A stretch of 64,000 nt of DNA from Maribacter sp. (GCF_049667165.1 NZ_JBATHS010000028.1:20591-84590), one strand, 5' to 3'. Positions 10,330 through 58,897 are shown, counted from the stretch's first letter. Notes: generated by a model from the letters alone, not told the origin. Made by a program: numbers and translations.

Positions 10330-10360
10330 AGAGCGCACCGTAAGGGTGCGTTCTTTAAAT
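10330..10360 (+). terminator. Rho-independent-type hairpin after the first GH29 gene
   Basis: AGAGCGCACC-GTAAG-GGTGCGTTCT forms a 10-bp stem (one G-T pair) with a 5-nt loop, followed by TTAAAT. It lies 33 nt downstream of the stop. Confidence 0.5.
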
Positions 10361-10377
10361 ATCAATTTTAATGTACA

Positions 10378-17862: not shown

Positions 17863-19241
17863 ATGAGACGATTATTCTTCAATTTACCTTTAGCATTTTT
17901 TTTTATTCTTTTGAGTACATCGGCCCAAACTTATCATGTAAAGGATTACGGGGCGGTCAATGATGGAACTACTTTAAATACAATTGCCATACAAACTGCA
18001 ATCAATGAATGTACTCGAAATGGTGGAGGAACAGTGTTGCTATCAGGTGGGGGTAAGTACATGACCGGGACCCTGTATTTGAAAGACAACGTAACACTGC
18101 ATATCGGTAATGGTACCGTACTATTGGGTAGTCCTAATTATGAAGATTATACCACAGATACCCATAAGAATATGTACAAGAATGAGCCACATATGGATAG
18201 TTGCCTCATTTTTGCCAAAGATGCCACCTCCATTGCCATTGAGGGTTATGGGACCATAGACGGCAATGGCCACAGGGAATTTTCAATAAGGACACGGGCC
18301 GACCGATGATGATTCGCTTTTTAAATTGTAAGGACATCCACTTAAATGATATTACGTTGATAAATCCAGCTGCATGGACATCAGCATGGCTCTACTGTGA
18401 CAATATCAGTGTAAGTGCCATCAACATTGTCAGTAGGGTCAATGGCAATGGGGATGGGCTTGACTTTGACGGTTGTACCGATGTACGTGTTATTAATAGC
18501 ACGTTCGACACCAGTGATGACAGCATCTGTCTGCAAGCTTCCAGGCCCGACAGACCATGTAAAAATGTTGTGGTGAGCAATTGTACTTTCACATCGAAAT
18601 GGGCAGGGATGCGTATTGGACTTCTTTCTAGGGGCAATATCGAGTCGGTCAGTGTTACCAATTGTACGTTTCGGGACATACAGGATTCAGGACTTAAGAT
18701 CCAACAGAATGAAGGGGGTGAAATGAAGAATATGGTCTTCAGTAATTTAGTGATGGAGAATGTTCCCAGACCTATTTTCATGACTTTTTGCCAACAACGG
18801 GCTTCAAATGAGACTCCAGAAGGCCAGTTTGAACCTTTGAAACGAATGCACCATTTTATATTCAGTAATATCGTAGTTGACAATTCTAAAGGCGATAAGA
18901 ATTCGGCTTTCTTTTTAACAGGACTTCCTGATCACAAAATAGAGGAGGTGATCATGAAGGATATCCAATTTACAATTTCTGGAGGAGGAACTAAGGAAGA
19001 CGCCCAAAAAGCCAATATCAAGGAGTATACACTCGATGTATTGGATGGATGGTGGCCCGAATTCCATTTGGTAGGTACGTTGCCGGCCTCCGGTATTTAT
19101 GCAAGACATATCGACGGATTGGTTCTCGAGAATATTCAAGTCAATATGATTGAGAAGGACGCACGGAAAGTGGTCGTTTTTGATGATGTTTCGAATGCCC
19201 GTATCCGTGATGTACGAAGTAACGATAAGCGTTTCAAATAG
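17863..19241 (+). pseudogene. GH28 (polygalacturonase-like, parallel beta-helix) gene interrupted by a frameshift
   Basis: Two overlapping ORFs (17863-18309 and 18306-19241) together encode one GH28-like protein: YHVKDYGAVNDGTT..., TIDGNG..., then RPMMIRFLNCKDI..., NGDGLDFDGC, TSDDSICLQ. The frames join if one T is added to the T run at 18280-18283. Confidence 0.7.
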
Positions 19242-19254
19242 TGCTACCTTTTAC

Positions 19255-20532
19255 CTATTCCCTGTTTTTGTTCTCCTTCAGAATACGGTTTTTCTGCTTT
19301 TCATTCAACCCATGTTCAAAATAAAATTCAGGCTTGTAGTATTCATGGGCGCGCTTCATATCCGGGTCATGAATATCAAGGCTCAGATCGCAATCAAAAC
19401 GGGCGAGTATAGCATGGTTTTGACTCCAAATCGTTGCGTTCGTAAAATGTGATAGGCCCCAGGTAATACCTTTTCCATAATCCGTATTGGTAAAGGCATC
19501 GGGAATATAAGGTCCAGCGGCATTGGGCATTAAATACGTGATCGAGGCAATATCAAAGTTAACCCCGTCCGCTGCATATTGTACTGTATTATGTTCATTG
19601 CCATCCCTGATAACCAAGGCAGCAATCCCTTCCATAAATGGGAATAGCGTAGTTTCATGCCCCGAATTGATAACGGGATTCAATGGATGCTTTGTAAAAG
19701 GGCCCAAAGGATTGTCGGCAATGGCCAAACCTTGCATTCTGACCAGCTCTGGGTCTCCATCAAAATCGGATTTATAGTAGAGGTAGATTTTGCCCTTATA
19801 TACCAAGGGATATGGGTCATGGATCGAGTATTGATCCCATTCGCCTTCAGCACCATTGGGAATCACAATTTTATTGTGTGGAGTCCAAGGACCATCGGGT
19901 GAATCGGCATAAGATACAGCAACCGGACAATCATCCCCTCGCTTACCGCTGGCCTCCATAAAACCTTGGTAATACAAATAATATTTGCCTTCCCATTCCA
20001 GAATATCGGTTGTTGTTACCGATCGCCATCCCACATTGGGTTTGGGAGGTCGCGGCACGGCGACCCCTTGCTCTTGCCATGTAAAGCCATCCTCGCTCGT
20101 AGCGTACCAAATATCGGCCAGATCCCAGTCGCTTGAAGGAATGGTATCGTTCGATTTTTCAGCCCCTTGAGGCGGGGTGGGGGTATGGCGATGGGTGTAC
20201 CACACATAATATTTACCGTTGGCAAAGATAACCTTTGAAGGATCACGACGTGAAATAGTGCCGTCATCATTATTATAGTCAAAACCCTTGAGCTCGGTAT
20301 ATTTGAATTGCGAATACAATTCATTTTGAGAGGGTCTGGGGGCTGAATACGCATCATAATTACGTGCACTTGCCTTACTCATTGCTCTATTGGGCTTTTT
20401 TTCCGGAAGTTTGAAAGGAAAGCCTATAGTATTCGTTTCAGATAAGGTAACCTCCTTTTCATTTTGGATTTTTTTGCAGGAAATCAAAACTAAGAGTATC
20501 ATGCTAACAACTATCAATCTTTGCAGTTTCAT
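19255..20532 (-). CDS. GH117-like five-bladed beta-propeller glycosidase, lipoprotein
   Basis: 425 aa with a lipobox (VLISC). RRDPS, HDP and adjacent SGHE residues fall near the positions of the Asp/Asp/His-Glu catalytic set that I recall for GH117 anhydro-L-galactosidases. It is a paralog of 23606-24889. Confidence 0.6.
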   Translation of the reverse strand: MKLQRLIVVSMILLVLISCKKIQNEKEVTLSETNTIGFPFKLPEKKPNRAMSKASARNYDAYSAPRPSQNELYSQFKYTELKGFDYNNDDGTISRRDPSKVIFANGKYYVWYTHRHTPTPPQGAEKSNDTIPSSDWDLADIWYATSEDGFTWQEQGVAVPRPPKPNVGWRSVTTTDILEWEGKYYLYYQGFMEASGKRGDDCPVAVSYADSPDGPWTPHNKIVIPNGAEGEWDQYSIHDPYPLVYKGKIYLYYKSDFDGDPELVRMQGLAIADNPLGPFTKHPLNPVINSGHETTLFPFMEGIAALVIRDGNEHNTVQYAADGVNFDIASITYLMPNAAGPYIPDAFTNTDYGKGITWGLSHFTNATIWSQNHAILARFDCDLSLDIHDPDMKRAHEYYKPEFYFEHGLNEKQKNRILKENKNRE

Positions 20533-20580
20533 CTTTTAAAATTTATTTAGGGTGTCTTTTTGAATAATGTGTCTGATGGA

Positions 20581-22134
20581 CTAATCTTTGTGTGCATCTT
20601 CGTTACCACCAATGTCGTTTTCTTTATACCCTTCCATCACAATTTTAAATGCATGTGCATAGTCTGTGGGATATGACTTGGGCGGTTTAATTACCAATCC
20701 ACGGGAATTCCTTTCCCACTCCAATTTTTCATCACTGCCCAATAAACTCACACTCATGATTTTTGAGTTTAATGCACCAATATCTGTGCTCAAGGTCTTC
20801 ATCACGATGTCTTCTTCCGGTTTGTCCATCACAATAGCATAGATTTCTTTATCAGATTTTTTAGTATATCGAATATCCGTATTTGTATATTCAATTTCGA
20901 TTTTCTCAATTTTATGCCCGCCTTCAGGCAAGCGGGTCGGACCTTCGCCAAAGACCGTCCACGGACGGGTTTTGTAGATAGCATCACCATTGACCTTTAG
21001 CCAAGCACCCATTTCGGTAAGTAGATAAACCATTTCCTCTGGTATGGAGCCATCCGGATTTGGAGGTACATTTAATAGCATCAAGCCATTTTTCGCCACG
21101 ATGTCGACCAAAATATCTATCAAATCGTTTGGTTTTTTAAACTCCGCCCCAGGACGGTAGAACCAAGCTCCTGGCGAAGTATCTGTCAACCATGCCGGGC
21201 TTTTAGGTTGGTTTGGCCGACCTCGCTCATAGTCTTTAATGGCAGTTGTAATGGGAAAAGTACTTTCTTTATAGGCCACACAAACTTCTTTGCCCCATTT
21301 TTGTGCCTCATTATAATAGTAGGCCAAAAATTTCTGACGGTCCGCTTCTGGAAGGTTTTCCAACCACCAGTCGAACCAAATTAAATCGGGCTGGTATATA
21401 TCGATATATTCTTTGAGCTTGGCCCACCACTCCTCGCGGAAACGGTCATCTGGCACATCCGATTCCAAACTATGGGGATTCGTGTACAAATCATAATCTT
21501 GGGGATCAACCCCACCATATTGGTGTGCTGGCGCAAAATATTTCCAGGTAAAGGCATGATGGAAGGAGGCCATAAATTTCAATCCTTGCGCCTCAATCTC
21601 CTTTTTCAGGGTTGCGGAGGGGTCGATTCCCCCATAATTCATCGAGTTCCATCGTGTTGATTTGGCATCCCACATCGCAAAATTATCATGATGCATGGCT
21701 ACAGGTCCCGCAAATTTTGCCCCCGATTTGGCAAATAATTCAGCCCATTCTTTGGCATTGAATTTTATGGGTTTGAAATTTTCGATGATATACTTGTACC
21801 CATACTTGGCCGGATCACCATATTTCTTTTTATGATGTAAGTAATTGTTTGAGGGCTCTCCATTTTTAGTGGGTACTTTCTTTCCGTCTTGATACATGAT
21901 CATACCATGCCAACCGCTATAGTTCTTGCTGGGGTCGGTGCCTTCAAATGCTTCTGATACAGGGCCCCAGTGTGCATAAATGCCCAATTTGGCATCTAGA
22001 AACCAATCGGGTGTTTGGTTTACCTTGGAAAGTGATTCCCAGGATTCTTCATATACCACACTTTCTTGCGCTTTTAGGATACTAAAAGCACAAAAAATAA
22101 GGACTGCCATAAAAGGTAAAGCTGTTTTTTTCAT
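20581..22134 (-). CDS. GH29 alpha-L-fucosidase
   Basis: 517 aa with a signal peptide. Motifs: KLGIYAHWGPVS, AMHHDNFAMWD and FGEGPTRLPEGG. Confidence 0.9.
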   Translation of the reverse strand: MKKTALPFMAVLIFCAFSILKAQESVVYEESWESLSKVNQTPDWFLDAKLGIYAHWGPVSEAFEGTDPSKNYSGWHGMIMYQDGKKVPTKNGEPSNNYLHHKKKYGDPAKYGYKYIIENFKPIKFNAKEWAELFAKSGAKFAGPVAMHHDNFAMWDAKSTRWNSMNYGGIDPSATLKKEIEAQGLKFMASFHHAFTWKYFAPAHQYGGVDPQDYDLYTNPHSLESDVPDDRFREEWWAKLKEYIDIYQPDLIWFDWWLENLPEADRQKFLAYYYNEAQKWGKEVCVAYKESTFPITTAIKDYERGRPNQPKSPAWLTDTSPGAWFYRPGAEFKKPNDLIDILVDIVAKNGLMLLNVPPNPDGSIPEEMVYLLTEMGAWLKVNGDAIYKTRPWTVFGEGPTRLPEGGHKIEKIEIEYTNTDIRYTKKSDKEIYAIVMDKPEEDIVMKTLSTDIGALNSKIMSVSLLGSDEKLEWERNSRGLVIKPPKSYPTDYAHAFKIVMEGYKENDIGGNEDAHKD

Positions 22135-30012: not shown

Positions 30013-31872
30013 TTAGTGCATTGGAATTATTTCTTTGGGAATGTCCAGTTTTTTATCATCGGCGCCTCCGGCAAAGTTGCTGATGTTATAACTATTGGGT
30101 AAAGTCCAATCACATTCTACTCTGCCATCCCCCAATACAATGTTGCCCAACTTGTTTCTGAACCAATCTGCCAATGCCCTGTATTCTTTTTTATCCGCAA
30201 CATTATTTTTTTCTAAAGGGTCGACCTTAAGATCATACAAGGCCATATCGGCTTTAGGTCGGTCACAGGTCAATGCCCATCTAACATCTTTGTTTTGGTC
30301 TGGACTATGAACATCATCCCACATATCCCTGCTGCGCATTGAAAAAGCAAAATCAAGGTTTCGCATATATGCTCGATGACCATTGACCACATTAATTTCT
30401 CCAAGGGCATATTGGCGTTTTGGTGCCTTATTGGTAATCACATCCTGTAAATCATAACCATCAAGGTAATTGTATTCTTTTTGAGCAATGTCAACACCAC
30501 CTACAGCCAAAAATGTAGGTACAAAATCTACATATTCAACGATGTCGGTATTCACTTTACCTGCAGGAAATTTCTCTTTGTCCGATGAGACCACTATGAC
30601 CGCATCATGTAAAGATTGCTTCCAAGGGCCGAATTTTGCCATGACGCCCTGTTCCCCCAGATGCCATCCATGATCACCTACCGTATAAACAATCAGGTAT
30701 TCCTCATCTTTTTCTTCGCAATACTTTTTAAATGTTTCAACGGCATCACCGATCAGTGCATCTCCGTAGGCACAAAACGCATAGTAATCTCGAATGGCTT
30801 GTAGTTTTTCTTCTTGTTTTAATTGATCTGCTTTGCATTCGTTATAATGCAACACCAATTGAGGAGGAAAATTGGACAATTCATCCGTGCTGAACTCCGG
30901 AAGGTTGTATTTTTTGTTCTTGAAAATGTCTCGATATTTTTTTGGAGGTAAGACAGGGGTGTGTGGCCATGTAAAACCTATATTCAAAAATAATGGTTTA
31001 TTGCTATCGGCACCCTCCACCTTTCTTCCCGATATGGTAGCATACGATTTATCAGTATTTTCAAGATAACTTTTGAATTCTTGTACAATTAATCCGTCTA
31101 TAGTTTTTCCTGCCGGATTCGGGTTTTCTCCACCGATTATCAACGTATTGTGTGGTCGGGTATATACTCTTAGAATATCAAAATCCTTATCCACTTTTGC
31201 ACGTAATTTTCGGTCGGCTTCCGGAATTTCTTTTTCTATATCATTCGTGATATATTTCACCTCGGGACCATTTGGATATATGGTGGTCTCCGTTCTGTTG
31301 ATCAATTTAAAAATCCCATCAGGAAATTCTATAGTGGCACCAGTTGTAAATATATCTCCATACCCCTTGTTTTGAAGATCTCCTTCAAAATGAACGACTA
31401 AATCGAACATATCATTTGGTCTGTTTTTTGTCTTATCCAAGTTTTTATCAATTGACCAATGGGTTTTGCCGAATGCTGCAGTGCCGTAGCCTTTATTTCT
31501 CATAATTTGGGACACCAATGGTTTTGAAACGTCCGCCTCCTGATGCGAATAGAATTTATAATGCCCAGATCTAAACGGATAACGTCCCATATGCATTGAA
31601 GCTCTTGAAATTGCACACATGGGAGAATTGTTATAAGCATTAACGAACAATGTACCTTCAGCCGCAAGTTTGTCTATGTTAGGAGACATCACGTAGCCTA
31701 GACTGCTCTCGCTCTTACCAGTGGTTGCCCTGTTATAACATTCCAAAGCATCTGCCCTTTGGTCATCTGTTATTATCCAAAGGATGTTAGGCTTTGATTT
31801 TTGGGAATTATCTTGCCCTGATAGATTTATAGAACAAAAAAGAAATAGTATTAATTTCAGGATTGTTTTCAT
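30013..31872 (-). CDS. S1 sulfatase with a non-canonical FGly motif (C-A-I-S-R)
   Basis: 619 aa with a signal peptide and the metal site WIITDDQRAD. The active-site stretch reads SPMCAISRASMHMGR, with Ile where Pro or Ala is expected. Confidence 0.85.
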   Translation of the reverse strand: MKTILKLILFLFCSINLSGQDNSQKSKPNILWIITDDQRADALECYNRATTGKSESSLGYVMSPNIDKLAAEGTLFVNAYNNSPMCAISRASMHMGRYPFRSGHYKFYSHQEADVSKPLVSQIMRNKGYGTAAFGKTHWSIDKNLDKTKNRPNDMFDLVVHFEGDLQNKGYGDIFTTGATIEFPDGIFKLINRTETTIYPNGPEVKYITNDIEKEIPEADRKLRAKVDKDFDILRVYTRPHNTLIIGGENPNPAGKTIDGLIVQEFKSYLENTDKSYATISGRKVEGADSNKPLFLNIGFTWPHTPVLPPKKYRDIFKNKKYNLPEFSTDELSNFPPQLVLHYNECKADQLKQEEKLQAIRDYYAFCAYGDALIGDAVETFKKYCEEKDEEYLIVYTVGDHGWHLGEQGVMAKFGPWKQSLHDAVIVVSSDKEKFPAGKVNTDIVEYVDFVPTFLAVGGVDIAQKEYNYLDGYDLQDVITNKAPKRQYALGEINVVNGHRAYMRNLDFAFSMRSRDMWDDVHSPDQNKDVRWALTCDRPKADMALYDLKVDPLEKNNVADKKEYRALADWFRNKLGNIVLGDGRVECDWTLPNSYNISNFAGGADDKKLDIPKEIIPMH

Positions 31873-32027
31873 GTTACGTAATTATTAACTGGCTTTTACT
31901 TCATTAATGGCATATAAATAAAACTAATCCATATTGTTCAAGATGCCATATTTTTTCACTAGACAAATACTTTACAACCCTGTTAAATCAAGATTGTAAC
32001 CTCTTCGAAATTTTCGAAAGCTTTGAT

Positions 32028-32540
32028 TTATTCCAATTCAAACTTGAATACGGTTGCGATTTCGTTCATTCCATTTACAGGTATCGTCAGATAAAAGCTT
32101 TCAGCTGTCAGTTCCCAATTCACCGCTACATTAGAACCCAATACATTTACCTTTTTTATTGGTGCCGGAGGAATGTTGCGATGATAGCCTCCTATGGTAC
32201 GTATTTCTATAAGTTCTCCTGCTTCCGGCTTTCCCAAGAAGAAAACATACATGGCCTTTTTGTCTTTCGCTACCGTAAATCGAATGTCCTCAGCAGTGTA
32301 TTCTATTTTTGATGATTGTCCGCCGTGTGAACCATCTTCAGCTTTGGCAGGGCCATACCCAAAGACCCGCCCCAAATACTTAGGCCATCGTTTCTATATA
32401 TCGATTTCGGGGAAACTTTTCCGAATTCAATCTTGAAATCTGGAGACGTATTTTCACGTTACTACCTTTGCTTTTTCCTGTTTGCAGGAGGCCAATGATG
32501 CTACACATAACGATATTATAATTACTTTCACTATTTTCAT
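32028..32540 (-). pseudogene. GH29 alpha-L-fucosidase relic (signal peptide plus C-terminal fragment)
   Basis: The ATG at 32540 opens a lipoprotein signal (MKIVKVIIISLCVASLASCKQEK). It is followed in the same frame by three stops (TGA, TGA, TAG) and then the 32028-32375 ORF. That ORF matches only the GH29 C-terminus (FGYGPAK...EDIRFT...). The ~370-codon catalytic core is absent. Confidence 0.6.
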
Positions 32541-32560
32541 TTTCCCAAAGGTCAACATAT

Positions 32561-34072
32561 TTATTCCTGAAATTGATCAAATTCTGGATTGACTTTGGCA
32601 TTTTTAAAGATCGGTCGGTTTTTCCATAATTCATATGTAGCTTTAAGTTGAGTTGCCGATTCAGGATATTGCCCTTTGTCATCAGTCTCTTTAATCCAAG
32701 TTTCCAATACGTTTCTATGTTCCTGAAGAACGACTTCAAAACTTGAATCACTGGCAAGGTTGCTCATTTGGTGTGGGTCAGTTTCCAGGTCATAGAATTC
32801 CTCCTCTGGGCGAATTCCGAACCAATGCTCCTCTTGATATTCTGTGAGTTTGTCTTCTTCGTATAGGTCTTTCATATCCGTTACTATGGGTCTATTATCC
32901 CGATAACCGGCCTGCAGCATTGGTCGATTCGGGTAATAATTTCTTATATAGCGGAACTCTTCTGAACGAACAGTACGAATACGGTCAATTGTATAATCAC
33001 ACCTATCTCTAGCTCCTATGACGAATTTCGGAGCTCTATAATCTTTGGCGAACAAATTCTGCCCGTCAAGATATTCCGGTAATTCAGCTCCGGCCAAGGC
33101 TAAAGTCGTGGCACTAACATCAAGAAGCGATACAAGTTCATCACGGACTTTTCCCGCTTCAAGTGATGCATGATTTCCTTTAATGATCAAGGGCACTTGC
33201 ATACCACCTTCATAACAAAATTGCTTGTGACGCAAGGAGGTATTGCTTCCGTGGTCGGAAAAGAAAAAAATAATCGTGTTTTCCAATTCGCCATCCGCTT
33301 TCAATTGAGCCAGAATCTTTTCTAGTTGTACATCCGATCCACGATTGGCATTGTAATGTGTAGTCCATGCCGCTCGTTGCGATGGAATATTCGGAAAATA
33401 GGGGGGCAGCGGAACATCATTAATTTCCAGCTTTTCTCCCTCCCGAACATATTTGGCATCTGCTTTTCCTCCCATGATTTGAACTTGACCAAACCAAGGT
33501 TGATCCTTATCAGGACGATTGCTCCATACAGCTTGGGTCAATGACATGAAGTTCTTAGCCCGGTTGCCTTGCCAACCATTCATGCCTGTTTTATACTCGT
33601 CAGAATTTCCCACATCATAAAGTACATTACGGTCGTAGTGAAAATTGTAATCGTCTTTACCATTGTTGAAGGTAAAATAGCCAGCAGCTTTCATGAGTTC
33701 GGGTATGGTCTTGACATATTTAGGAAGATGGATTCGAAGCGCTTCAGGAACAATTTCACCATCGACGGTTCGGCTTGAACGGTGTTGATGCGTACCAGTG
33801 GAAGTTTGCATTACACCGGTTATCAATGCAGATCTACTTGCTGAACAGACGGGAGCCGTGGAATAGGCATGTTTAAAAAGGACACCTTCTGAAGCCAATT
33901 GATCGATGATTGGCGTGTGCCCCTGGTTTATTGAATCGCCATAGCAGCCCATAAATGGAGACAAGTCTTCGGCTATTATCCATAGGATATTTGGTCGTAT
34001 TACCTCTTTTGAATCGAGTTCAAAACATGAGAGTAAAGTCAATAGCGCAATAAGTATTGCCGTTGTTTTCAT
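32561..34072 (-). CDS. S1 sulfatase, lipoprotein
   Basis: 503 aa with a lipobox (TLLSC), the metal site WIIAEDLS and the FGly motif CSASRSALITG (the Cys-x-Ala-x-Arg variant). Confidence 0.9.
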   Translation of the reverse strand: MKTTAILIALLTLLSCFELDSKEVIRPNILWIIAEDLSPFMGCYGDSINQGHTPIIDQLASEGVLFKHAYSTAPVCSASRSALITGVMQTSTGTHQHRSSRTVDGEIVPEALRIHLPKYVKTIPELMKAAGYFTFNNGKDDYNFHYDRNVLYDVGNSDEYKTGMNGWQGNRAKNFMSLTQAVWSNRPDKDQPWFGQVQIMGGKADAKYVREGEKLEINDVPLPPYFPNIPSQRAAWTTHYNANRGSDVQLEKILAQLKADGELENTIIFFFSDHGSNTSLRHKQFCYEGGMQVPLIIKGNHASLEAGKVRDELVSLLDVSATTLALAGAELPEYLDGQNLFAKDYRAPKFVIGARDRCDYTIDRIRTVRSEEFRYIRNYYPNRPMLQAGYRDNRPIVTDMKDLYEEDKLTEYQEEHWFGIRPEEEFYDLETDPHQMSNLASDSSFEVVLQEHRNVLETWIKETDDKGQYPESATQLKATYELWKNRPIFKNAKVNPEFDQFQE

Positions 34073-34172: not shown

Positions 34173-35291
34173 CTATTGTCCTTCCTCTATATATTGCTTT
34201 GCAAGATAGGCGTAGGTTTCACTATCGGAATTCGCAAATGTTTCAATGTTATTTAGAATTTCGCGTGATAATTCATGCTTTGGCGATAAATGGCTGAAAA
34301 AGCTATTAAGTTGATTTTTACTCATTGCCGATAACTTACCAGATAGGATGTCAACAACAAAAGGGGGTGCTGTATCCAAATTTTTCAGTAATAAACTACG
34401 GCTGCCAACATCTATTTTATCGAAAGCTTGCCAGAAGGGTAGTTGCAAGTTCGGGGTTGCTTTAAAATGTGTCATAAAGCTTTTCGCAACGACACTGCGA
34501 ACCAATGGGATGGCCGTTTTGAATATTTCCGAAATTTGAACATGATGTTGCAGATATAATTCCTGATCCATTTTTTCCAATGCAAAAAGCTGGTATTCCG
34601 GGTTATTGCTATAGAGCATATCGATTATTATATTCTCGTTTAATACAGCAAGGGTCCTAGCTTTTAATTTTTCACGAATATCCCCATGTGCTAAATGCCA
34701 AGCGGTGTAACAAGAATAAAGTGCACCAGGTACAATAGATTCTTTTACTTGGGTAATGGTCGCCCCCGAAACGGCATCCACGCCATTAACAGTCCGCATT
34801 TTAGGTTGCTCTACCAAACGGTCAATACTTCTTCTTCCCAGGATACTTTTATCATCGGTCAAAAGTTCATGTAGTTTTTGATAATCTTCTTCCAGAAATA
34901 TATCATGGTCGTATTTGGTCAAGGGTAAATCGGGATAGCGGTCAAAACCGGCATATTCCCCTAAAAGTGTCCAATACAATTTTAGATTCATTAATTTGCA
35001 TTCTCCATCAGCGCATACGGGGGTCGAAATAGCAGCGGTATATAGAACGGGTTCTTTCCTTTGATTCAGTAAAACATCGATACCCTGTTTTCCCACAGAA
35101 TCTACTTCGATGAAAAACTCCGTTTTTTGGGATGTCAGTTTTGTGCCAACGTTCCATTGCAATACATAAAATTCAGGCGCTTTATCCAAAAAATCACTCA
35201 TAGGAAGCTTGTTGGGAACCTCCTTTAATTCACTGGTGGGTCTTCCTGAAAAGAGCAGTATAAGTAGAAGTATGGAAAAAGAGGTTTTCAT
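34173..35291 (-). CDS. Secreted FMN_bind-like protein (SGAT flavinylation motif) with a helical-repeat C-terminal half; function unknown
   Basis: 372 aa with a signal peptide. VDAVSGATITQ matches the [S/T]GA[T/S] FMN-attachment site of NqrC/RnfG-type FMN_bind domains. It is a paralog of 54182-55300. Its start overlaps the stop of the upstream FAD-oxidoreductase (ATGA). Confidence 0.5.
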   Translation of the reverse strand: MKTSFSILLLILLFSGRPTSELKEVPNKLPMSDFLDKAPEFYVLQWNVGTKLTSQKTEFFIEVDSVGKQGIDVLLNQRKEPVLYTAAISTPVCADGECKLMNLKLYWTLLGEYAGFDRYPDLPLTKYDHDIFLEEDYQKLHELLTDDKSILGRRSIDRLVEQPKMRTVNGVDAVSGATITQVKESIVPGALYSCYTAWHLAHGDIREKLKARTLAVLNENIIIDMLYSNNPEYQLFALEKMDQELYLQHHVQISEIFKTAIPLVRSVVAKSFMTHFKATPNLQLPFWQAFDKIDVGSRSLLLKNLDTAPPFVVDILSGKLSAMSKNQLNSFFSHLSPKHELSREILNNIETFANSDSETYAYLAKQYIEEGQ

Positions 35292-37084
35292 TGTTTTGAA
35301 TCTGGGATCTTTTCAAATTTCTGCTCTTCTATCAACGCTAAATATTCATCTAAATAACCGGTATAAATCTCCCTCGGATTAACATCGTACTTTTTGCAAA
35401 GGGCAGCGGCAAAACCCACTGCAGCGCCCATCTGGCCCGTGGTTCGCATAACCCTTGGTCCGCCCAACCCTGCGTGGGAACAGCTGAAATTTCTTCCGGC
35501 CATAAAAAGATTGGAAATATTCTTGGAGTACAAACTTCGATACGGAATATAATATTCAGGAGTATTGTAAAAAAGTGCCTCCGATATAAAATCAGGGTTG
35601 TTCTCATTTTCAAGTACCGTCTGATAGTGTATATCGACGGCCCTTATTTCAATCACCACCCCATCGCGAAATTTGCGCCCTTCCTTTGCATCGTTAAAGG
35701 TGAAAACATGGTCGCCAATTAATCTTCGTGATTCCCTTTTCCCTACTAAATAGGATACCCATTCAAGTTCGCGATGGGCATTTTCAGGCTGTTTTTTGGC
35801 ATTTGCGAACGAACCATAAATAGCCCGTAGCATGTGGTCGCGAATTTCTTCGGCGTCATCGATTTGGTTCAAATCCGGACTGCTGAACTCCCATTGCCAT
35901 TCCCCGGCTACTTTTGCATAATCCTTAGCCACAGGCATGGCCCACGGTACCTCTGGAAAAGCCTGTTGGGATGATGTTTCTTTTGAACCCCATAATACCG
36001 ATGAGCCCATGACGGCATTGTCGGGTTCTTTCGGACTCCATAATTCACCATGCTCTTCCCATTCCTCTCTGTATGTATCCACACTTTCACGGCCATATGA
36101 AAACTCGGCACCTGCCCAATATCCTATCCAACCGTCACCCGTGGAATCTACAAATCGCGGGGCTGTAAACCGAATGCGATCTCCTGTGGATGTATGTCTT
36201 GCGTCCACATATTGAATGATACTGTCCTTGGCTAGGGCATCATAGGCCCGGTGATTCAGGAATAGGTCGATATTGCTATAATTTTTAACGTTATCATCCC
36301 GTTTTTTCTGGTCGAGTTTTGCCTCATCACTCCCATTGGGGTAGTGCTCGGTATCTATTTTTTTAAGAATGCGTTCAAAGTTCCCATAGATACCCAGCGT
36401 ATGAACCCTGATCTCTTCACTGGCATTCCCACCAAGTACAGGGCGGTCATGAATCAATGCGATTTTTAGGCCTTCCTCCGCTGCGGCTATAGCCGCGGCA
36501 CAACCGGCGATTCCCCCACCTACAACCACTAAATCATATGATTTCGTGATTGGTGGCGCATTGGGTTCGGACTTGATGGTCTTTCGCCATGATGCCAGCT
36601 TTTTAGAAGAAGATGGTGGTTCTTCATTTTTTGTGGAAAAATAAATAGCATCAACCCTGCCATTGAATCCAGTCAAATCGATGAGTTCCAGTTGAATTTC
36701 ATGTGCTGTCACATTGATGTTGTCGACATATTCCCATCCCCAACCAGAGCGGAGACCTAACGTCTTGTCAATCAATTGTGAATTTACTTTTAGTTGAAAT
36801 CGCCCTGGTGCCTCCCAATTGCCAGGGACCCAGTTCTTGGTTCGTACCCAAACGTGATACTTACCAACGGTTTCGAATTTCACTTTGGTCATGGCATTTT
36901 CAACAGGCACCCCCATGCCATGCGCCAAAAGATAGGGGGAACCCATCTGTTGTTCAAATTGAGGGTCGATTACCCAACCTCCCGGATTGTCAAAGTTTTC
37001 AGCCTCGATCAATAGTTCCTGGGCCAAAAGGGCATTAAAGAAGAAGATGAAAAAAAGCGGTATAATTTTTCTAAATAGATTCAT
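35288..37084 (-). CDS. Exported FAD-dependent oxidoreductase (PF12831-like) with an N-terminal beta-sandwich domain
   Basis: The likely start is MNLFRKIIPLFFIFFFNALLAQ at 37084 (Sec-type signal). An N-terminal ~170-aa domain is followed by the dinucleotide fold YDLVVVGGGIAGCAAAIAAAEEG and DRPVLGGNAS. It is a homolog of 55304-57220. Confidence 0.75.
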   Translation of the reverse strand: MNLFRKIIPLFFIFFFNALLAQELLIEAENFDNPGGWVIDPQFEQQMGSPYLLAHGMGVPVENAMTKVKFETVGKYHVWVRTKNWVPGNWEAPGRFQLKVNSQLIDKTLGLRSGWGWEYVDNINVTAHEIQLELIDLTGFNGRVDAIYFSTKNEEPPSSSKKLASWRKTIKSEPNAPPITKSYDLVVVGGGIAGCAAAIAAAEEGLKIALIHDRPVLGGNASEEIRVHTLGIYGNFERILKKIDTEHYPNGSDEAKLDQKKRDDNVKNYSNIDLFLNHRAYDALAKDSIIQYVDARHTSTGDRIRFTAPRFVDSTGDGWIGYWAGAEFSYGRESVDTYREEWEEHGELWSPKEPDNAVMGSSVLWGSKETSSQQAFPEVPWAMPVAKDYAKVAGEWQWEFSSPDLNQIDDAEEIRDHMLRAIYGSFANAKKQPENAHRELEWVSYLVGKRESRRLIGDHVFTFNDAKEGRKFRDGVVIEIRAVDIHYQTVLENENNPDFISEALFYNTPEYYIPYRSLYSKNISNLFMAGRNFSCSHAGLGGPRVMRTTGQMGAAVGFAAALCKKYDVNPREIYTGYLDEYLALIEEQKFEKIPDSKQ

Positions 37085-37094
37085 CCGTATTATT

Positions 37095-38780
37095 CTAATC
37101 ATTCCAATGTTCATCGATTACTTTTTGAATATGGGGGTATTTGGCATCGGTCTCGTTCAAATTCTCCCGCATTTGTTCCATTTGGGTTTTTAAATCAGCG
37201 ATGACCGAAGCATAGGCAGGGTCTTTATAGACATTGTTCATTTCTTTTGGGTCTTTGCTTAAATCATAGAATTCCCATGCGGGGGGCGTATGCGTGATAA
37301 AATCATTGCCCCAACTCTCCTTATTCCATGTGGCATTAGGGTCATCGGTATCTACCCAATATTTTCCGTAGAAGAAGATTAGTTTATAGTCTTTGGTGCG
37401 AATGCCAAAGTGGGCCGGATTTTGGTGTTTATGTGCCAAATGCATCCAATACCGATAATAGGTTGCCTGTTGCCAATTTTCAGGTTCTTCGCCAGTTTCC
37501 AAAATGGTCTTAAAGCTTTTTCCCTGCATGTAATCCGGTGCTTTACCTCCAGCCAATTCTATCAACGTAGGGGCAAAATCGGTATTATTGATTATGGCAT
37601 CGGTTCTTGTACCAGGTTTGATATTTTCAGGATATCTGACAAAGAAAGGCATCCGCATGGACTCATCGTACATCCATCGTTTATCAATATAATCATGTTC
37701 CCCCAACATAAAACCTTGATCCCCGGTATAGACAATGATGGTATTTTCCATTAATCCCTCTTCTTCTAAATAATCCAACAGGCGTTTTACATTGTCATCG
37801 ACTCCTTTTACGCAACGCAGGTATTTTTTCAAATAATCCTGATACACCTTACTTGTGTATTCCCGCTCAGCTGGGTTCATTTCCCATTTCACATATTCTT
37901 CAGGTCTAATATCCTTGGCTTCCCGGTATTTTTTATAAATCGTGGTGTCATTCCAATAGATATTCATGGCTTGGTTACGAATTAAATTTCGACGTGAAAC
38001 TGATGAACCAATAATCCGGGTTAATGAATCGTTTTTTCCTCTTGTCCCAATTGAACCATTATTAGCATTATCATATAAACTTTCCGGTTCTGGAATAAAT
38101 GTATCTGCCAAATAACTGTCATATCTTGGGGCATTTTCGAAATCATCATGGGGTGCCTTAAAGTGATGCATCAAAAAGAAAGGTTTATTCGGGTCTCTTT
38201 TGTTCTTCAGATAATCCAAGGTGATGTCCGTAATCATGTCTGATGAATGTCCTTTGGTCTGGACCAAATTTTCGGGCCAGGGCTTATCACCACGAACCCT
38301 AAAATCAGGATCGAAATATTTCCCTTGAACCGGAAGTACTTTATAATAATCAAAGGCAGCAGGTTCATCATGCAAATGCCATTTACCGACTATGGCAGTC
38401 TGGTAGCCCAGTTTTTTCATTTCAAGTGGCAAGTATTGATTTTCAGGGGCGAGAGAACCTTCCAAATCTATGACCCCATTTGTTTGCGCTCGTTGACCTG
38501 TTAATATTGCAGCCCTACTTGGCACGCAAATGGAATTATTGACAAAACAATTCTGAAAAATGATTCCCTCATTGGCAAGTTTGTCCAGCGTTGGGGTAGG
38601 GTCGAGGCTTGCCAAACGGCTGCCATAAATACCAAAGCCTTGGGTCGTATGGTCATCCGCCATGATATAGATGATATTTGGTTTTTGAACCACGGTGGCA
38701 CTTTTTTCATTGCAGGAAAATAGGGGTCCTGTTAGTATCAAAACAAGCAGCATTCTTTTTATATACATCATCATATTCAT
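37095..38780 (-). CDS. S1 sulfatase, lipoprotein
   Basis: About 561 aa from the Met at 38780 (the alternative at 38798 would overlap the upstream gene). It has a lipobox (PLFSC), the metal site YIMADDHT and the FGly motif CVPSRAAILTGQ. Confidence 0.9.
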   Translation of the reverse strand: MNMMMYIKRMLLVLILTGPLFSCNEKSATVVQKPNIIYIMADDHTTQGFGIYGSRLASLDPTPTLDKLANEGIIFQNCFVNNSICVPSRAAILTGQRAQTNGVIDLEGSLAPENQYLPLEMKKLGYQTAIVGKWHLHDEPAAFDYYKVLPVQGKYFDPDFRVRGDKPWPENLVQTKGHSSDMITDITLDYLKNKRDPNKPFFLMHHFKAPHDDFENAPRYDSYLADTFIPEPESLYDNANNGSIGTRGKNDSLTRIIGSSVSRRNLIRNQAMNIYWNDTTIYKKYREAKDIRPEEYVKWEMNPAEREYTSKVYQDYLKKYLRCVKGVDDNVKRLLDYLEEEGLMENTIIVYTGDQGFMLGEHDYIDKRWMYDESMRMPFFVRYPENIKPGTRTDAIINNTDFAPTLIELAGGKAPDYMQGKSFKTILETGEEPENWQQATYYRYWMHLAHKHQNPAHFGIRTKDYKLIFFYGKYWVDTDDPNATWNKESWGNDFITHTPPAWEFYDLSKDPKEMNNVYKDPAYASVIADLKTQMEQMRENLNETDAKYPHIQKVIDEHWND

Positions 38781-38784
38781 TATT

Positions 38785-40299
38785 TTATGGAGTGGCATTT
38801 AATTGGGGTTTGATCTGACTTATATCCAAAGGATCATTTAATTCCTTTTGCAACTGGATCAATTCGATGAACATGGCATTAATTCTGTCTTTGTATTCCG
38901 GTTTTTTCGCTAGATCATCCATTTCTTCTGGGTCGTTGGTCAAATCGAAGAGCAATATCTTATTCAGTTTAGGGTAGATCAATAACTTAAATCCGTCCTT
39001 TCTTATCATTCGCTGTGTACTCACGTAACCCCCATAGATGGCATCGTAATGACTGGTGCTTCGTTCGCCATTGAGAATATCCAAGAAACTGTTGAAATAA
39101 ACATAATCCGGCTTTTCAATCCCCGCTAGTTCTAGACTAGTGGCCATAGCATCCTGTAAATAAATATCCGTATCGATTTTTTTGCCCTTCTCAATTTTAG
39201 GCCCGACAATCGTGAATGGTGGGCGGATACTATGGTCAAACAGGGATTGCTTTCCCAACAGCCCATGGCGCCCCATGGCCAAACCATGGTCCGCGGTGAA
39301 AATGATATAGGTATTATCCATTTTGCCGCTAGCTTCCAATTCATTCAGAATTGCCCCAATTTGATCATCAAGATGGGTGATCAATGCATAATATTCCTGA
39401 ATATGTTTCTTTGTGGCATATTCCGTTCTAGGGAATGGTGCCAAAGCCTCATCCCTTAAGTCAGGTCCATTACCTATACTATCCTTAAACGGGTACATGG
39501 GCATCCAACTTTTGGGCAAACTGATATTTTCCAACGGATATTTATCCAGGTATTCTTGAGGTGCTTGTCTTGGGTCATGGGGGGCATTGAAGGCCAGGTA
39601 CATAAAGAAAGGGGTATCCTTGGTTTTGGCTTTAGTGATGAAATCGATTGCATCGTCTTTAAGGACTTCGCTCCAATGTTTGCCTCCTTCCCAATAACCT
39701 CCGAACTTCTTATCCGTTGGGGTCCACGATGTATCATTCTCATTTAATGGACGATTATACCCTACCGCTTTTATATCTGATTCTGATTTGCCATTTTTTA
39801 GCATTTCATTTATCATTGGAATTGATCCACCGTGGCTCCATGAATCTCTTGGCATGCCTGGCCTCACATGGGTAACATGCTGAAAAACGGAATCTGCCGG
39901 GGCATCTACATGCCATTTACCGGTCATGTAGGTTTCATAACCTGCCCCCTCCATTAATTTTCCCCAAGTTTTGTCCATTTCTTGCCCTCCTATCCAATTT
40001 TGTCTGAATTGGTCAGTCTCCCAAACACTGCGTCCTGAAATGAGCATGGCCCTTGATGCTTGGCATACGGCACCGTTCCATGCACCCATATTATAAGCAT
40101 GGGTGAATGTTGTTCCAGTAGCGACCAAGCGATCGATATTTGGAGTCTGGATCTCTGTATTGCCCACTGCATTAACAGCTGTATAGGTCATATCATCCGC
40201 AAAAATGAAAACAACATTAGGTTTAGCCGTTTCTGATGCCTCTTCTGTTTTGCAATTCAACACCAATGCGATAATGACTAGGGCAAATAGTTTTTTCAT
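38785..40299 (-). CDS. S1 sulfatase, lipoprotein
   Basis: 504 aa with a lipobox (LVLNC), the metal site FIFADDMT and the FGly motif CQASRAMLISGR (Ala variant). Confidence 0.9.
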   Translation of the reverse strand: MKKLFALVIIALVLNCKTEEASETAKPNVVFIFADDMTYTAVNAVGNTEIQTPNIDRLVATGTTFTHAYNMGAWNGAVCQASRAMLISGRSVWETDQFRQNWIGGQEMDKTWGKLMEGAGYETYMTGKWHVDAPADSVFQHVTHVRPGMPRDSWSHGGSIPMINEMLKNGKSESDIKAVGYNRPLNENDTSWTPTDKKFGGYWEGGKHWSEVLKDDAIDFITKAKTKDTPFFMYLAFNAPHDPRQAPQEYLDKYPLENISLPKSWMPMYPFKDSIGNGPDLRDEALAPFPRTEYATKKHIQEYYALITHLDDQIGAILNELEASGKMDNTYIIFTADHGLAMGRHGLLGKQSLFDHSIRPPFTIVGPKIEKGKKIDTDIYLQDAMATSLELAGIEKPDYVYFNSFLDILNGERSTSHYDAIYGGYVSTQRMIRKDGFKLLIYPKLNKILLFDLTNDPEEMDDLAKKPEYKDRINAMFIELIQLQKELNDPLDISQIKPQLNATP

Positions 40300-40303
40300 A
40301 GGA

Positions 40304-42112
40304 CTATAATTTTTCTATTTGAATGTAATAAGCGGGAATTTCAATGTTCTCGGCCGTAAGAAAAGAGCATTTGAGGGTATGACTCCCTGGTTTTAATTTG
40401 GTTTTAAGTTCGATGTAAGGTTGGTCTGTGTCGGTTTCGGCGAAAATGGTATTGCCACCAATTTCAACCTTCCCCGTTTTTATAGGGATCGGTTGTCCTT
40501 TTGGAAGTGCATCACGAAAAGCCGTTCCCGGAATTTCTTCGGTAGTGGCTTTTAATGTTAACCCAGATTCAGGAGGATAGCGATACAATTTAAAACGATA
40601 CTCCCCTTCATCCTGCACTTTTACGCTATAATAGCCAGCGGGGAATAGCTTACCCTCACGGATCTGTACCTGGTTCCATGGAATCCCTTCCGTGGTATGC
40701 ATATCATGGACGCTTATAGTTACAGGATTGGCGATTTTATTGCCAAGTGGAATTTCCGCATACTTTATATCAGGTTCCACGCTTGCCCACCAATTATCGT
40801 AAAACAGATTCATTTCAGAAACAAGGTCAGGATGTTTATCGGCAAGGTCATTGGCTTGGCCCAGGTCATCGGCCAAATTATAGAGTTCCTTGCCATCGAT
40901 CAATCGCCATTCCGAGGACATGACACAACTATTTTTACCTTTTTCAGGCCATTGGTTCCTTTGGGTATCGACCACCAACATACGGTCAATATCCTGTGCT
41001 TCTCCCCGCATTATATTGGCAATGCTTGTGCCATCCAATATTTTTTTGGATTCGAAAGTCAGGCCTGCCAATTCGGCCAATGTTGGGAGGATGTCAACAT
41101 GGGCGGTCAGTGCGTTACGTTTTGTTTTTTGTAAGATTTCACCATTTGGCCAGCTGATAAAGAAAGGTACACGATGGCCCCCATCATAATGACTTCCTTT
41201 TGTTCCCCGTAACCCGGCATTATACCCTAAAATGGGTTGTTCTTTATTTCCTTTTGCAATACCGGCGGCAGTACCATTATCTGTCGTGAAAATCAATATG
41301 GTATTGTCATATTGCCCTGTTTTTTTTAGATGTGAAATCAATTTACCCAAATTGTCATCGATATTGGAAATCATCCCATAGAATCTTTTCTGTTGTTCAG
41401 ATAGCGGAGCGGATTCATATAACTTGGCATAGGATTCCGGTACGTTGAACGGGCCATGGGCGGCATTCAAGGCTAAATACATAAAGAAAGGTTCGTCACT
41501 AGGGGTATTTAGGTATTCAATGGCTTCGTTGAACCAAACATCCGTACAATACCCACTTGATTTTTCGGGTATACCATTTCTAAGGTAGGTGTCATCAAAA
41601 TAGTCATTGTTCCAGAAATCCGGGGTCTGGTTTACACCGCCACCACCAAGGTAGAAGGCATGTTGAAATCCTCTGTCATTAGGTCTAAATGGGTAGTTGT
41701 CCCCCAAATGCCATTTGCCGAACATGGTGGTACGGTATCCATTTTTTTCAAAAACCTGAGGTAGGGTTTCCTCATCTTCCAAAAGGATGGAACATCCCGC
41801 AATTGTGTGCCACGCATTGTTTCGATCGGCATTTCTACCTGTTAACAATCCGGCACGAGTAGGGGCGCAGGTGGTCCCCACATGAAAGTTTGTAAGTTCT
41901 AGTGATGCCGATGCGAATGCATCTAACTGGGGGGTTTTTAGTATCGGATTGCCATGATACGCCAAATCACCATATCCTTGATCATCGGTTAAAATGATGA
42001 TGACATTGGGTTTTGCCATTTCTTCCATGTTTACCATATCAGCCTCCTTGCAATTAAGAAGTAGGATTACCGATAAAATAGCGAACATAAGATGACGTAA
42101 CAGGACCTTCAT
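40304..42112 (-). CDS. S1 sulfatase with a C-terminal beta-sandwich extension, lipoprotein
   Basis: 602 aa with a lipobox (LLLNC), the metal site IILTDDQGYGD and the FGly motif CAPTRAGLLTGR. Confidence 0.9.
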   Translation of the reverse strand: MKVLLRHLMFAILSVILLLNCKEADMVNMEEMAKPNVIIILTDDQGYGDLAYHGNPILKTPQLDAFASASLELTNFHVGTTCAPTRAGLLTGRNADRNNAWHTIAGCSILLEDEETLPQVFEKNGYRTTMFGKWHLGDNYPFRPNDRGFQHAFYLGGGGVNQTPDFWNNDYFDDTYLRNGIPEKSSGYCTDVWFNEAIEYLNTPSDEPFFMYLALNAAHGPFNVPESYAKLYESAPLSEQQKRFYGMISNIDDNLGKLISHLKKTGQYDNTILIFTTDNGTAAGIAKGNKEQPILGYNAGLRGTKGSHYDGGHRVPFFISWPNGEILQKTKRNALTAHVDILPTLAELAGLTFESKKILDGTSIANIMRGEAQDIDRMLVVDTQRNQWPEKGKNSCVMSSEWRLIDGKELYNLADDLGQANDLADKHPDLVSEMNLFYDNWWASVEPDIKYAEIPLGNKIANPVTISVHDMHTTEGIPWNQVQIREGKLFPAGYYSVKVQDEGEYRFKLYRYPPESGLTLKATTEEIPGTAFRDALPKGQPIPIKTGKVEIGGNTIFAETDTDQPYIELKTKLKPGSHTLKCSFLTAENIEIPAYYIQIEKL

Positions 42113-54181: not shown

Positions 54182-55300
54182 TTAAAGTCTATCTTGATTT
54201 TGATTGTAGAATTCCTGAATGTTATTCTTCTGCACATTCGATAGTTTTTTATACGCCAAAAACCAATATGCCTTTCTGGCGATTATAAAACTACTGTTGT
54301 CCAATAACAATGTAACACGATCTAAAATAGTTGGGTCATTTGATTTTGCGTATTCCAAAATGTTCAAAATCAAATCTATTTCCTGAAAAGATTTCAGATT
54401 GGCAATATCAATGGTCAATGTATTATAAAAATCCGGATTGCCGATTTTCTCTACACTTGCTATGGAATTCAAAAAAAGAATCCTATTCGCATCACTCCCT
54501 TTGCTATAGAGTTGTTTCATCGTTTCAATATAAAGCTCCCGTGGGGCATTTTCAACATATTCAATGGCAAGGCGATTTACTTCTTTAGATGCTTTTGGGG
54601 CGATTTTCACTAGGGCATCAAGTAGGGGTTGGGTGTATGCGTTACGGCGAATCAATTCATGAAGCACAAATTTCTGATGCTTCGGATTCGTAGCACCTAA
54701 ACCAGTAATGATTTGCTGCGTCGTTAGAAAACTGCCCGATATTCGCTGCACTTCCTGAACGATCTCACCATTTGCCCAGTGCCAAAGCGTAAAGCAGGTC
54801 CATGCTGCCCCAACAACGGTTTCCCCATTTTTCAATACGGTCTCCGTGGCGCCCGATACAGCATCTACTTGACCCTCTCCTACGACCTTTTCGTGGGTTA
54901 TTTCATAGTATGAAATGTCTTTATAGGGCGAATTCCTGTCCATTAATATTTTCTGCAGCAATTGATAATCTTCCTCATTAAAAGGCTCTCCTTCTCCTTT
55001 CTCTAGGCGAACACCTTTATCCAATTCATAGCTGACATATTCCCCGTAGGTATTCCAAAAAAGACGTACTGGAACAATTTTACAAAGATGGTCGATACAA
55101 ATAACCGATTCCACTTCAAGATAAAATTCCGACGGGTTGTTTTTTCTTCTGATTTCTTTCAATACAAAATCCTTCGAAGTTCCTTCCTCAAAAGCAGGAT
55201 GGCTCACCACCACCTTATGGTCTACCACCTCTTCTTGGGCAACATTGAACGCCAAAAAGACAACAATAAAAAGGATTATGTGTTTTAAGAAAATCACCAT
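54182..55300 (-). CDS. Secreted FMN_bind-like protein (SGAT motif) with a helical-repeat C-terminal half; paralog of 34173-35291
   Basis: 372 aa with a signal peptide and VDAVSGATETV. It shares the CxDxxC (ICIDHLC) and C..WH (CFTLWHWANG) features with the paralog. It starts 4 nt after the stop of the FAD-oxidoreductase. Confidence 0.5.
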   Translation of the reverse strand: MVIFLKHIILFIVVFLAFNVAQEEVVDHKVVVSHPAFEEGTSKDFVLKEIRRKNNPSEFYLEVESVICIDHLCKIVPVRLFWNTYGEYVSYELDKGVRLEKGEGEPFNEEDYQLLQKILMDRNSPYKDISYYEITHEKVVGEGQVDAVSGATETVLKNGETVVGAAWTCFTLWHWANGEIVQEVQRISGSFLTTQQIITGLGATNPKHQKFVLHELIRRNAYTQPLLDALVKIAPKASKEVNRLAIEYVENAPRELYIETMKQLYSKGSDANRILFLNSIASVEKIGNPDFYNTLTIDIANLKSFQEIDLILNILEYAKSNDPTILDRVTLLLDNSSFIIARKAYWFLAYKKLSNVQKNNIQEFYNQNQDRL

Positions 55301-55303
55301 ACA

Positions 55304-58890: not shown

Positions 58891-58897
58891 GGGTATC

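Follow-up and report, generated by a model that had tools for sequence, protein, structure and literature searches.

The window, by which we mean the whole stretch of DNA analysed (64,000 nucleotides of Maribacter sp., GCF_049667165.1 NZ_JBATHS010000028.1:20591-84590), carries two copies of a two-gene module. In each copy, the gene of an exported flavin adenine dinucleotide (FAD)-dependent oxidoreductase of the family PF12831 is followed by the gene of a 372-residue exported protein, called here the partner. The pair is probably an undescribed two-flavin redox enzyme that is common in marine Bacteroidota. The features of the first copy are the following.

35288-37084, minus strand: FAD1, exported PF12831 FAD-dependent oxidoreductase, 598 aa (called start at 37084; open reading frame (ORF) 35288-37114)
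34173-35291, minus strand: partner 1, exported protein of 372 aa with a beta-rich N-terminal domain (N-domain) and HEAT-like repeats
35288-35291, minus strand: ATGA stop/start overlap (translational coupling) from FAD1 to partner 1, read directly
34758-34778, minus strand: DAVSGAT, residues 172-178 of partner 1, candidate heptamer for flavinylation by ApbE (coordinates checked)
34998-35015, minus strand: CADGEC (C93 and C98, within VCADGEC), cysteine pair on a beta-hairpin of the N-domain
34176-34727, minus strand: HEAT/alphaRep-like helical repeat domain, residues 189-372 of partner 1 (AlphaFold2 and Foldseek)

An earlier note on this DNA had described copy 1 as a Sec-signal FAD oxidoreductase joined by an ATGA overlap to a signal-peptide protein with a helical-repeat tail, and this description holds well. 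All the motifs that it listed (VVVGGGIAGCAAA, DRPVLGGNAS, VCADGEC, VDAVSGATITQ and CYTAWH) were found on the minus strand, and the overlap was confirmed by direct reading. FAD1, in which YDLVVVGGGIAGCAAA and DRPVLGGNAS are present, begins with the Sec-type signal peptide MNLFRKIIPLFFIFFFNALLAQE and matches PF12831 in Pfam over profile positions 1-410 of 416 (E 2.2e-63, 215.5 bits, cut-off 27). In partner 1, VDAVSGATITQ corresponds to residues 171-181, CYTAWH contains C194, and the tail (residues 189-371) is all-helical in the AlphaFold2 model. The recurrence of the pair at 54182-57220 was also verified, both genes being paralogous to those of copy 1.

55304-57220, minus strand: FAD2, paralogous PF12831 oxidoreductase, 638 aa, with an extra C-terminal region (PF12831 E 1.7e-89)
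57200-57214, minus strand: RRKFF, twin-arginine (Tat) signal of FAD2
54182-55300, minus strand: partner 2, paralogous 372-aa protein
54845-54865, minus strand: DAVSGAT of partner 2
55082-55099, minus strand: CIDHLC of partner 2

FAD2 covers the entire PF12831 profile (positions 1-416 of 416, 301.5 bits against the same cut-off of 27) and its gene lies 3 nt from that of partner 2. The two copies are rather divergent, with 35% identity over 423 aa between FAD1 and FAD2, and 32% over about 170 aa, in the N-domain, between the partners.

A genome scan with a partner profile returned 80 loci, all of them from Bacteroidota (Flavobacteriaceae, Cyclobacteriaceae, Saprospiraceae, Lewinellaceae and Flammeovirgaceae). 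A FAD1-type gene lies directly upstream on the same strand, its end no more than about 200 nt from the partner start, in 77 of these 80 loci; the partner of the remaining three is at a contig edge. Clustering of ORFs placed the FAD gene at position -1 in 76/82 loci, and the 4-nt stop/start overlap between the FAD and partner genes is found in 42 of 74 related loci. The two genes are thus conserved as neighbours. Across loci the enzyme is much more conserved than the partner (64-87% identity for FAD1-type enzymes, 33-61% for partners). Moreover, the pairing is cognate: a type-1 partner is always preceded by a FAD1-type enzyme and a type-2 partner by one of FAD2 type, and the enzymes that precede type-2 partners share 56-83% identity with FAD2 and about 33% with FAD1 (type-2 partners were examined in Lutibacter, Mariniflexile, Ochrovirga and a Saprospiraceae metagenome-assembled genome (MAG)). 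The two-gene module was thus duplicated as a unit, and each partner kept its own enzyme. We consider this cognate co-divergence as the strongest evidence for a functional partnership, and the two proteins are probably also physical partners. Both module types can be seen side by side in an uncultured Flavobacteriaceae (locus L015), which has FAD1 and partner 1 at 8174-11110 and FAD2 at 18666-20627, that is, within about 10 kb and in the same arrangement as in the window.

Signals at the N-termini indicate that partners and FAD subunits are both exported, which would place the motif site outside the cytosol. A hydrophobic signal-like N-terminal stretch is present in 162 of 176 full-length partners, as judged by a hydropathy check and not by a dedicated signal-peptide predictor. 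The twin-arginine motif separates the two enzyme types, since it is found in none of 120 FAD1-type enzymes, which have Sec-type signals, and in all five FAD2-type enzymes (RRxFF). Export of FAD1-type enzymes through Sec implies that their FAD is acquired in the periplasm, where FAD also serves ApbE as substrate; both points agree with a periplasmic flavin economy, which we infer for the bacteria that have FAD1-type enzymes.

The partner family is large (845 representative clusters at E<=1e-3, with 197 close homologues of type 1 and 65 of type 2), and neither a Pfam nor an NCBIfam model matched it. Its most conserved feature is the SGAT site. The minimal recognition motif of ApbE is D-x-x-[S/T]-G-A-[S/T], and a seven-residue tag of this kind suffices for flavinylation, surface loops included (PMC12052999). 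Within the window the pattern D..[ST]GA[ST] occurs exactly twice in 40 proteins (19,912 residues), once in each partner, where shuffling of the window proteins gives an expectation of 0.06. The earlier note had read VDAVSGATITQ as an [S/T]GA[T/S] flavinylation motif; both copies in fact hold the full published heptamer, and Thr178 is invariant. Among 183 close homologues D172 and T/S178 are conserved at 100%, G176 at 99% and A177 at 97%; among 143 diverse representatives (<=50% identity) the values are 100% for T178, 98% for D172, 96% for A177 and 83% for G176, which is replaced by Ser or Ala. In mutated ApbE tags, Thr-to-Ala abolishes flavinylation and Gly-to-Ala leaves about 50% of it (PMC12052999). 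The substitution pattern of the family closely mirrors the mutational tolerances of ApbE, and Thr178 of partner 1 is the predicted site of flavin mononucleotide (FMN) attachment.

In a 129-sequence partner alignment (24% mean identity), only the columns of C93, C98 and T178 are invariant. The three conserved cysteines proposed before are all present; the CxDxxC pair (C93/C98) stands, whereas the third, C194, is kept in only about 55% of diverse members. AlphaFold2 models partner 1 with a predicted local distance difference test (pLDDT) of 83 over its full length, and of 89 when the N-domain is taken separately. From the N-terminus the model shows a beta-rich N-domain, two to three helices, the motif loop and an all-helical repeat domain whose helices (residues 189-371) have pLDDT above 90. 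The cysteines C93 and C98 sit on a hairpin with strands at residues 81-94 and 97-107, and in this geometry they probably form a disulfide. The motif lies in a low-confidence loop between well-modelled elements, and this loop is presumably flexible and accessible. In Foldseek the repeat domain comes closest to alphaRep/HEAT-like proteins (TM about 0.58 on the target, E about 0.03), and HEAT_2 is a weak Pfam match in 7 of 129 members; this domain is presumed to be a docking scaffold. The partner is described here as a candidate ApbE substrate of new fold, fused to a HEAT-like domain.

We favour, with a probability of about 55%, the reading in which the pair is a two-subunit periplasmic flavoenzyme, made of a PF12831 catalytic subunit and a HEAT-domain partner that relays electrons by means of FMN bound covalently to Thr178. 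The PF12831 protein would be the catalytic FAD subunit, and its substrate would be some component of algal glycans that are rich in fucose and often sulfated. The HEAT-like domain of the partner would dock onto this enzyme, while the N-domain would present D-A-V-S-G-A-T as an exposed loop to which a housekeeping ApbE, encoded elsewhere in the genome, would attach FMN covalently at Thr178. The tethered FMN might then shuttle electrons between the FAD of the enzyme and a redox partner also encoded elsewhere.

Several results weigh against this reading. The earlier note had named a significant FMN_bind match among its checks; none was obtained, and an assignment of the partner to FMN_bind had to be abandoned. 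The profile PF04205 (FMN_bind) scores 14.3 and 14.4 bits on the two partners, below its cut-off of 22, with sub-threshold matches that cover only 14-18 residues around SGAT. Across the family it is the most frequent Pfam match, at E<=1 in 13 of 129 members (best E 0.028). A Foldseek search of the N-domain model (pLDDT 89) against the PDB gave a best E of 0.66, and no NqrC, RnfG or other FMN_bind structure was among the matches listed, structures of this type being present in the PDB (4u9s, 7xk3, 8ahx, 7zc6, 3dcz). The whole partner model gave no significant FMN_bind match in Foldseek, and a hidden Markov model (HMM) of the partner family retrieved no FMN_bind chain (NqrC, RnfG) from the PDB at E<=10. 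Alignment of the partner with RnfG/RsxG by hhalign reached a probability of 26% (P 7e-4) over 104 columns, with a shallow target profile of 5 sequences; in this alignment the CADGEC hairpin falls on that of GY.G.I, and we take this as suggestive, not as evidence. With no significant match in Pfam, NCBIfam, the HMM search or Foldseek, we rejected the assignment to FMN_bind: the partner is not a recognisable domain of this family. Nevertheless, ApbE substrates include several unrelated folds (PMC8238504, PMC10979944), so that this failure lowers the FMN_bind claim and not the flavinylation claim. The flavinylation idea thus survives, with the partner as a candidate new class of ApbE substrate.

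Other points on the same side concern the motif loop, which is poorly modelled by AlphaFold2, and the genes around the pair. Searches by tblastn with E. coli Ftp and a Saprospiraceae ApbE, run on the window and on the related loci, found no apbE in the 64-kb window and one within the fetched flank in only 1 of 86 related loci (L086). No CxxCH motif of c-type cytochromes is present in the window ORFs of at least 150 aa, and genes for cytochromes, quinone-linked proteins or membrane redox proteins are not regular neighbours of the pair in related loci. Finally, a metagenomic relative (L083) has the motif TAAT in a domain joined to a MatE-like region, and its 3.5-kb contig carries no FAD gene. 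This 673-aa protein (L083:147-2168, high-GC contig) joins a MatE-like membrane region to a partner-like domain with the motif DAVTAAT. We did not retain the fusion (P0279) as a Rosetta-stone link to a flavin exporter, as it comes from a single 3.5-kb metagenomic contig, has the TAAT motif, and is followed by a gene for an MFS_2 sugar transporter; the basis is too thin.

In the main rival reading, the partner is an accessory subunit that is not flavinylated and serves the FAD enzyme as a scaffold, as a glycan or substrate binder or as an assembly chaperone. The D-x-x-S-G-A-T loop and the cysteine pair would then bind an anion or substrate or form a structural turn, and the likeness to the ApbE tag would be convergent. 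The partner has indeed no recognisable flavin-binding fold or family, its HEAT-like domain is a generic scaffold for protein interaction, and neither apbE nor an electron-transfer gene is linked to the pair. However, conservation in the family agrees with the ApbE mutational data at each position, and apart from the cysteines only the acceptor Thr is invariant. Moreover, an exposed seven-residue tag in the periplasm of a cell that contains ApbE would be expected to be flavinylated anyway, and the partner is always coupled to a flavoenzyme. On balance, we judge a purely accessory role as unlikely.

An apbE gene does exist in at least one genome with the pair, that of the Saprospiraceae MAG of locus L086, in which an ApbE-DUF3570-thioredoxin cluster (L086:12419-15379, minus strand) lies on the strand opposite to that of a FAD2/partner pair and about 4 kb downstream of it. 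Systems of this type are known from Meheust et al. 2021 (PMC8238504), and the closeness of this one to the pair is probably coincidental.

The best match of the FAD profile among solved structures is the Shewanella flavocytochrome c3 fumarate reductase (E 3.6e-10), and this match, as for solved structures in general, is confined to a dinucleotide-binding motif of about 45 residues, so that inference of the chemistry of the FAD enzymes from solved relatives was rejected. The PF00890 match of the FAD enzymes covers only the first 37 residues of that domain, and all NCBIfam matches are far below their cut-offs. The extra regions of the enzymes (the N-terminal region of about 160 aa in FAD1, of which 158 aa were searched, and the C-terminal 148 aa of FAD2) match no Pfam family, and we do not claim a carbohydrate-binding module in either of them.

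Marine Flavobacteriia are mainly aerobic, and since the hosts of the module are aerobic Flavobacteriia, we favour the dehydrogenase direction, from the substrate to FAD, then to FMN and to a periplasmic cytochrome or the quinone pool. With the same FMN relay and FAD enzyme, electrons might also run from the membrane to the FMN of the partner, to FAD and to a glycan-derived acceptor such as an unsaturated or keto sugar, by analogy with the flavinylated reductases of fumarate, urocanate and methacrylate. Every extracytosolic flavoenzyme characterised so far that uses an ApbE-flavinylated relay is a reductase, and the fumarate reductase match mentioned above points the same way. The short span of that match, the aerobic hosts and the lack of a membrane electron donor linked to the pair argue against it, and a reductase seems to us rather improbable. 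As for the proposal that the pair connects glycan chemistry to the respiratory chain, it is pure inference: the pair has no linked gene for ApbE, for a cytochrome or for a redox partner in the membrane.

The surroundings of the pair point to glycan utilisation. The window encodes three full-length fucosidases of glycoside hydrolase family 29 (GH29) and GH2, GH3, GH28 and GH43-like enzymes, together with genes for the catabolism of fucose and galactose, ten sulfatases, a formylglycine-generating enzyme (FGE), a tripartite ATP-independent periplasmic (TRAP) transporter and a hybrid two-component regulator. By its gene content, the window probably serves the use of a sulfated glycan rich in fucose. 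The sulfatase cluster upstream of FAD1 was identified by tblastn and Pfam; the sulfatase genes next to the two copies and the FGE gene are listed here.

37095-42112, minus strand: three sulfatases (40304-42112, 38785-40299 and 37095-38798) directly upstream of FAD1
30013-34072, minus strand: two sulfatases (32561-34072 and 30013-31872) downstream of partner 1, with a GH29 C-terminal fragment between them
57238-60577, minus strand: two tandem paralogous sulfatases directly upstream of FAD2
52691-54154, minus strand: sulfatase directly downstream of partner 2
6333-7487: FGE gene

The run upstream of FAD1 is on one strand with gaps or overlaps of at most 14 nt. The three sulfatases that the earlier note had placed there are confirmed; downstream there are two (32561-34072, then 30013-31872) and not just one. 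Between the two downstream sulfatase genes lie a 115-aa ORF and a neighbouring 125-aa ORF. The former (in 32028-32757, minus strand) matched only the GH29 C-terminal domain, with E 1.6e-4 and below the Pfam gathering score, and the fragment at 32028-32757 looks like the remnant of a disrupted fucosidase gene. The tandem sulfatases upstream of FAD2 look much alike on visual inspection. As called, their ORFs share 89 nt, and the one lying downstream runs into the longest ORF of FAD2 as well; their true starts are probably later, for instance at MGRLCILLCVL.

SusC and SusD are not encoded within the 64-kb window. Among related loci, SusD is found within 10 kb of the pair in 29/82 and SusC in 25/82, and the recurrent neighbours are SusC/D, sulfatases, GH29, GH43-like, GH127 and GH16 enzymes, FG-GAP/ASPIC proteins and sugar transporters. 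A sulfatase lies within 10 kb of the pair in 37 of the 82 loci, and for this reason a strict sulfatase link was rejected as a general rule. Thus, the idea of a module dedicated to the breakdown of sulfated glycans stands for its glycan-locus setting and is too narrow in the word sulfated: the module belongs to glycan loci generally, and is often, not always, tied to sulfated substrates. Overall, the interpretation given in the earlier note is borne out in part.

The same count bears on another explanation, in which the module is a thiol or redox helper. The FAD protein would oxidise or reduce C93/C98 of the partner in a relay of the sulfhydryl-oxidase type, or the pair would feed reducing equivalents to FGE, which in the periplasm would mature the neighbouring sulfatases. 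The invariance of C93 and C98, the FGE gene in the window and the sulfatases that flank both copies speak for it. Yet fewer than half of the related loci have a sulfatase within 10 kb, and the FGE gene is 27 kb away in a different operon. A helper of this type would also leave the invariant Thr and the full ApbE heptamer unexplained, and in the model the cysteines are on adjacent strands of one hairpin, as in a structural disulfide. We therefore regard this explanation as very improbable, and retain the two-subunit flavoenzyme with an FMN-bearing partner.

A CstA-like (PF02554) membrane protein of about 480 aa is encoded on the same strand immediately after the partner, or close to that place, in 29/82 loci, including those of Zobellia, Arenibacter, Kriegella and Lutibacter (e.g. 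L081:11144-12586 and L082:11153-12583); the gene is absent from the window. This neighbour hints at the import of a small acidic product. Taken further, the 372-aa proteins might found a new structural class of ApbE substrates and form, with the PF12831 enzymes, a widespread periplasmic glycan dehydrogenase of marine Bacteroidota, which would oxidatively remove or activate a glycan substituent, pass the electrons to the respiratory chain and have its product imported through the CstA-like transporter in about one third of the loci. We put this forward tentatively, as an idea with some chance of being right that probably is not. If it were true, oxidation might for example take place beside a sulfate ester, or beside an ether or ketal group of acidic character, and would enable elimination in place of hydrolysis, and the imported product would be small and acidic.

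Other neighbours were observed that might be of interest. In Zobellia and others (L081:2754-5015 and five other loci) there is a 753-aa protein with DUF7133, HEAT_2 and cytochrome c domains, encoded three genes upstream of the pair in the Zobellia loci; it could be an electron acceptor. Homology of the partner HEAT part with this protein was rejected (hhalign probability 0.5%). In 16 loci (e.g. L062:5495-8026), an 843-aa protein with no Pfam match is encoded at position -2, directly upstream of the FAD gene. At the edge of the window (13-3986, minus strand), genes for a CobW-like GTPase, a fusion of a URO-D-like protein with thioredoxin, a B12-binding protein and a second URO-D-like protein adjoin galT/galK and the FGE gene. 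This cluster looks like a corrinoid-dependent methyltransferase system and might serve the demethylation of O-methylated sugars of the glycan.

The degradation of fucoidan-type algal glycans by marine Bacteroidota has been described almost wholly in terms of hydrolases, lyases and sulfatases. If a conserved exported two-flavin module works there, current pathway models lack an oxidative or a reductive step, and the partner, if flavinylated, would be a new fold among ApbE substrates. The module is present in Zobellia species (Z. roscoffensis among them), which are genetically tractable, and also in Maribacter sp. HTCC2170, Flagellimonas algicola and Mariniflexile sp. AS56. Literature on sulfatases, polysaccharide utilisation loci, flavinylation, fucoidan, Zobellia and CstA, and periplasmic dehydrogenases was searched, and no published description of the PF12831/partner pair was found; the statement of the earlier note that this pairing has no characterised function in polysaccharide loci thus agrees with our searches.

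Multi-subunit periplasmic sugar dehydrogenases are known, for example the FAD glucoside 3-dehydrogenase, which works with a small subunit and a cytochrome c. The shared concept is a glycoside-acting FAD dehydrogenase that is exported by Tat or Sec and has a dedicated small redox partner. The glucoside dehydrogenase, in contrast, is a glucose-methanol-choline (GMC) enzyme with a haem subunit or a small Tat-carrier subunit, whereas the present pair consists of a PF12831 enzyme and a candidate flavinylated HEAT protein.

Also among the closest known systems are the fumarate-reductase-like extracytosolic flavoenzymes, which have an FMN-binding domain in cis or within two genes. Those of the PF00890 family (Listeria FrdA, the Shewanella urocanate reductase UrdA, the Klebsiella fumarate reductase) carry an ApbE-flavinylated FMN-binding domain. 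Our pair resembles them in that an exported FAD enzyme of the two-dinucleotide-binding-domain superfamily is coupled to a D-x-x-[S/T]-G-A-[S/T] module, and in that the electron partners are encoded elsewhere in the genome. It differs in its enzyme, which belongs to PF12831, and in its motif module, which is a separate protein with an unrecognised fold and HEAT-like repeats. Furthermore, the PF00890 systems serve anaerobic respiration, while the pair lies in glycan-utilisation loci of aerobic marine Bacteroidota and its flavinylation is only predicted.

The partner can also be set beside the known flavin carriers. With the FMN_bind proteins (NqrC, RnfG/RsxG, PplA, NosR, PceC) it shares the heptamer and, continuing from it, G-A-T-[IV]-[TA] and then a helix; the hhalign result hints at a possible order of beta-hairpin, helix, motif and helix. 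It lacks, however, their GY.G.I and ETPGLG signatures, and the Pfam match is below threshold in all 129 members. That ApbE substrates may differ in fold and yet be recognised by a conserved [S/T]GA[S/T] motif has precedents in DUF2271 and DUF3570 (Meheust et al. 2021, PMC8238504) and in substrates that resemble flavodoxin or FMN reductase (Huang et al. 2024, PMC10979944). In contrast to DUF2271 and DUF3570, the partner family has no Pfam model and does not lie beside apbE. Published surveys of ApbE substrates began from apbE neighbourhoods or from existing Pfam models, and would have missed this family for these two reasons. Relative to the known systems of a flavinylated relay and a flavoenzyme, the pair is therefore new in the family of its enzyme, in the fold and architecture of its carrier and in its biological setting.

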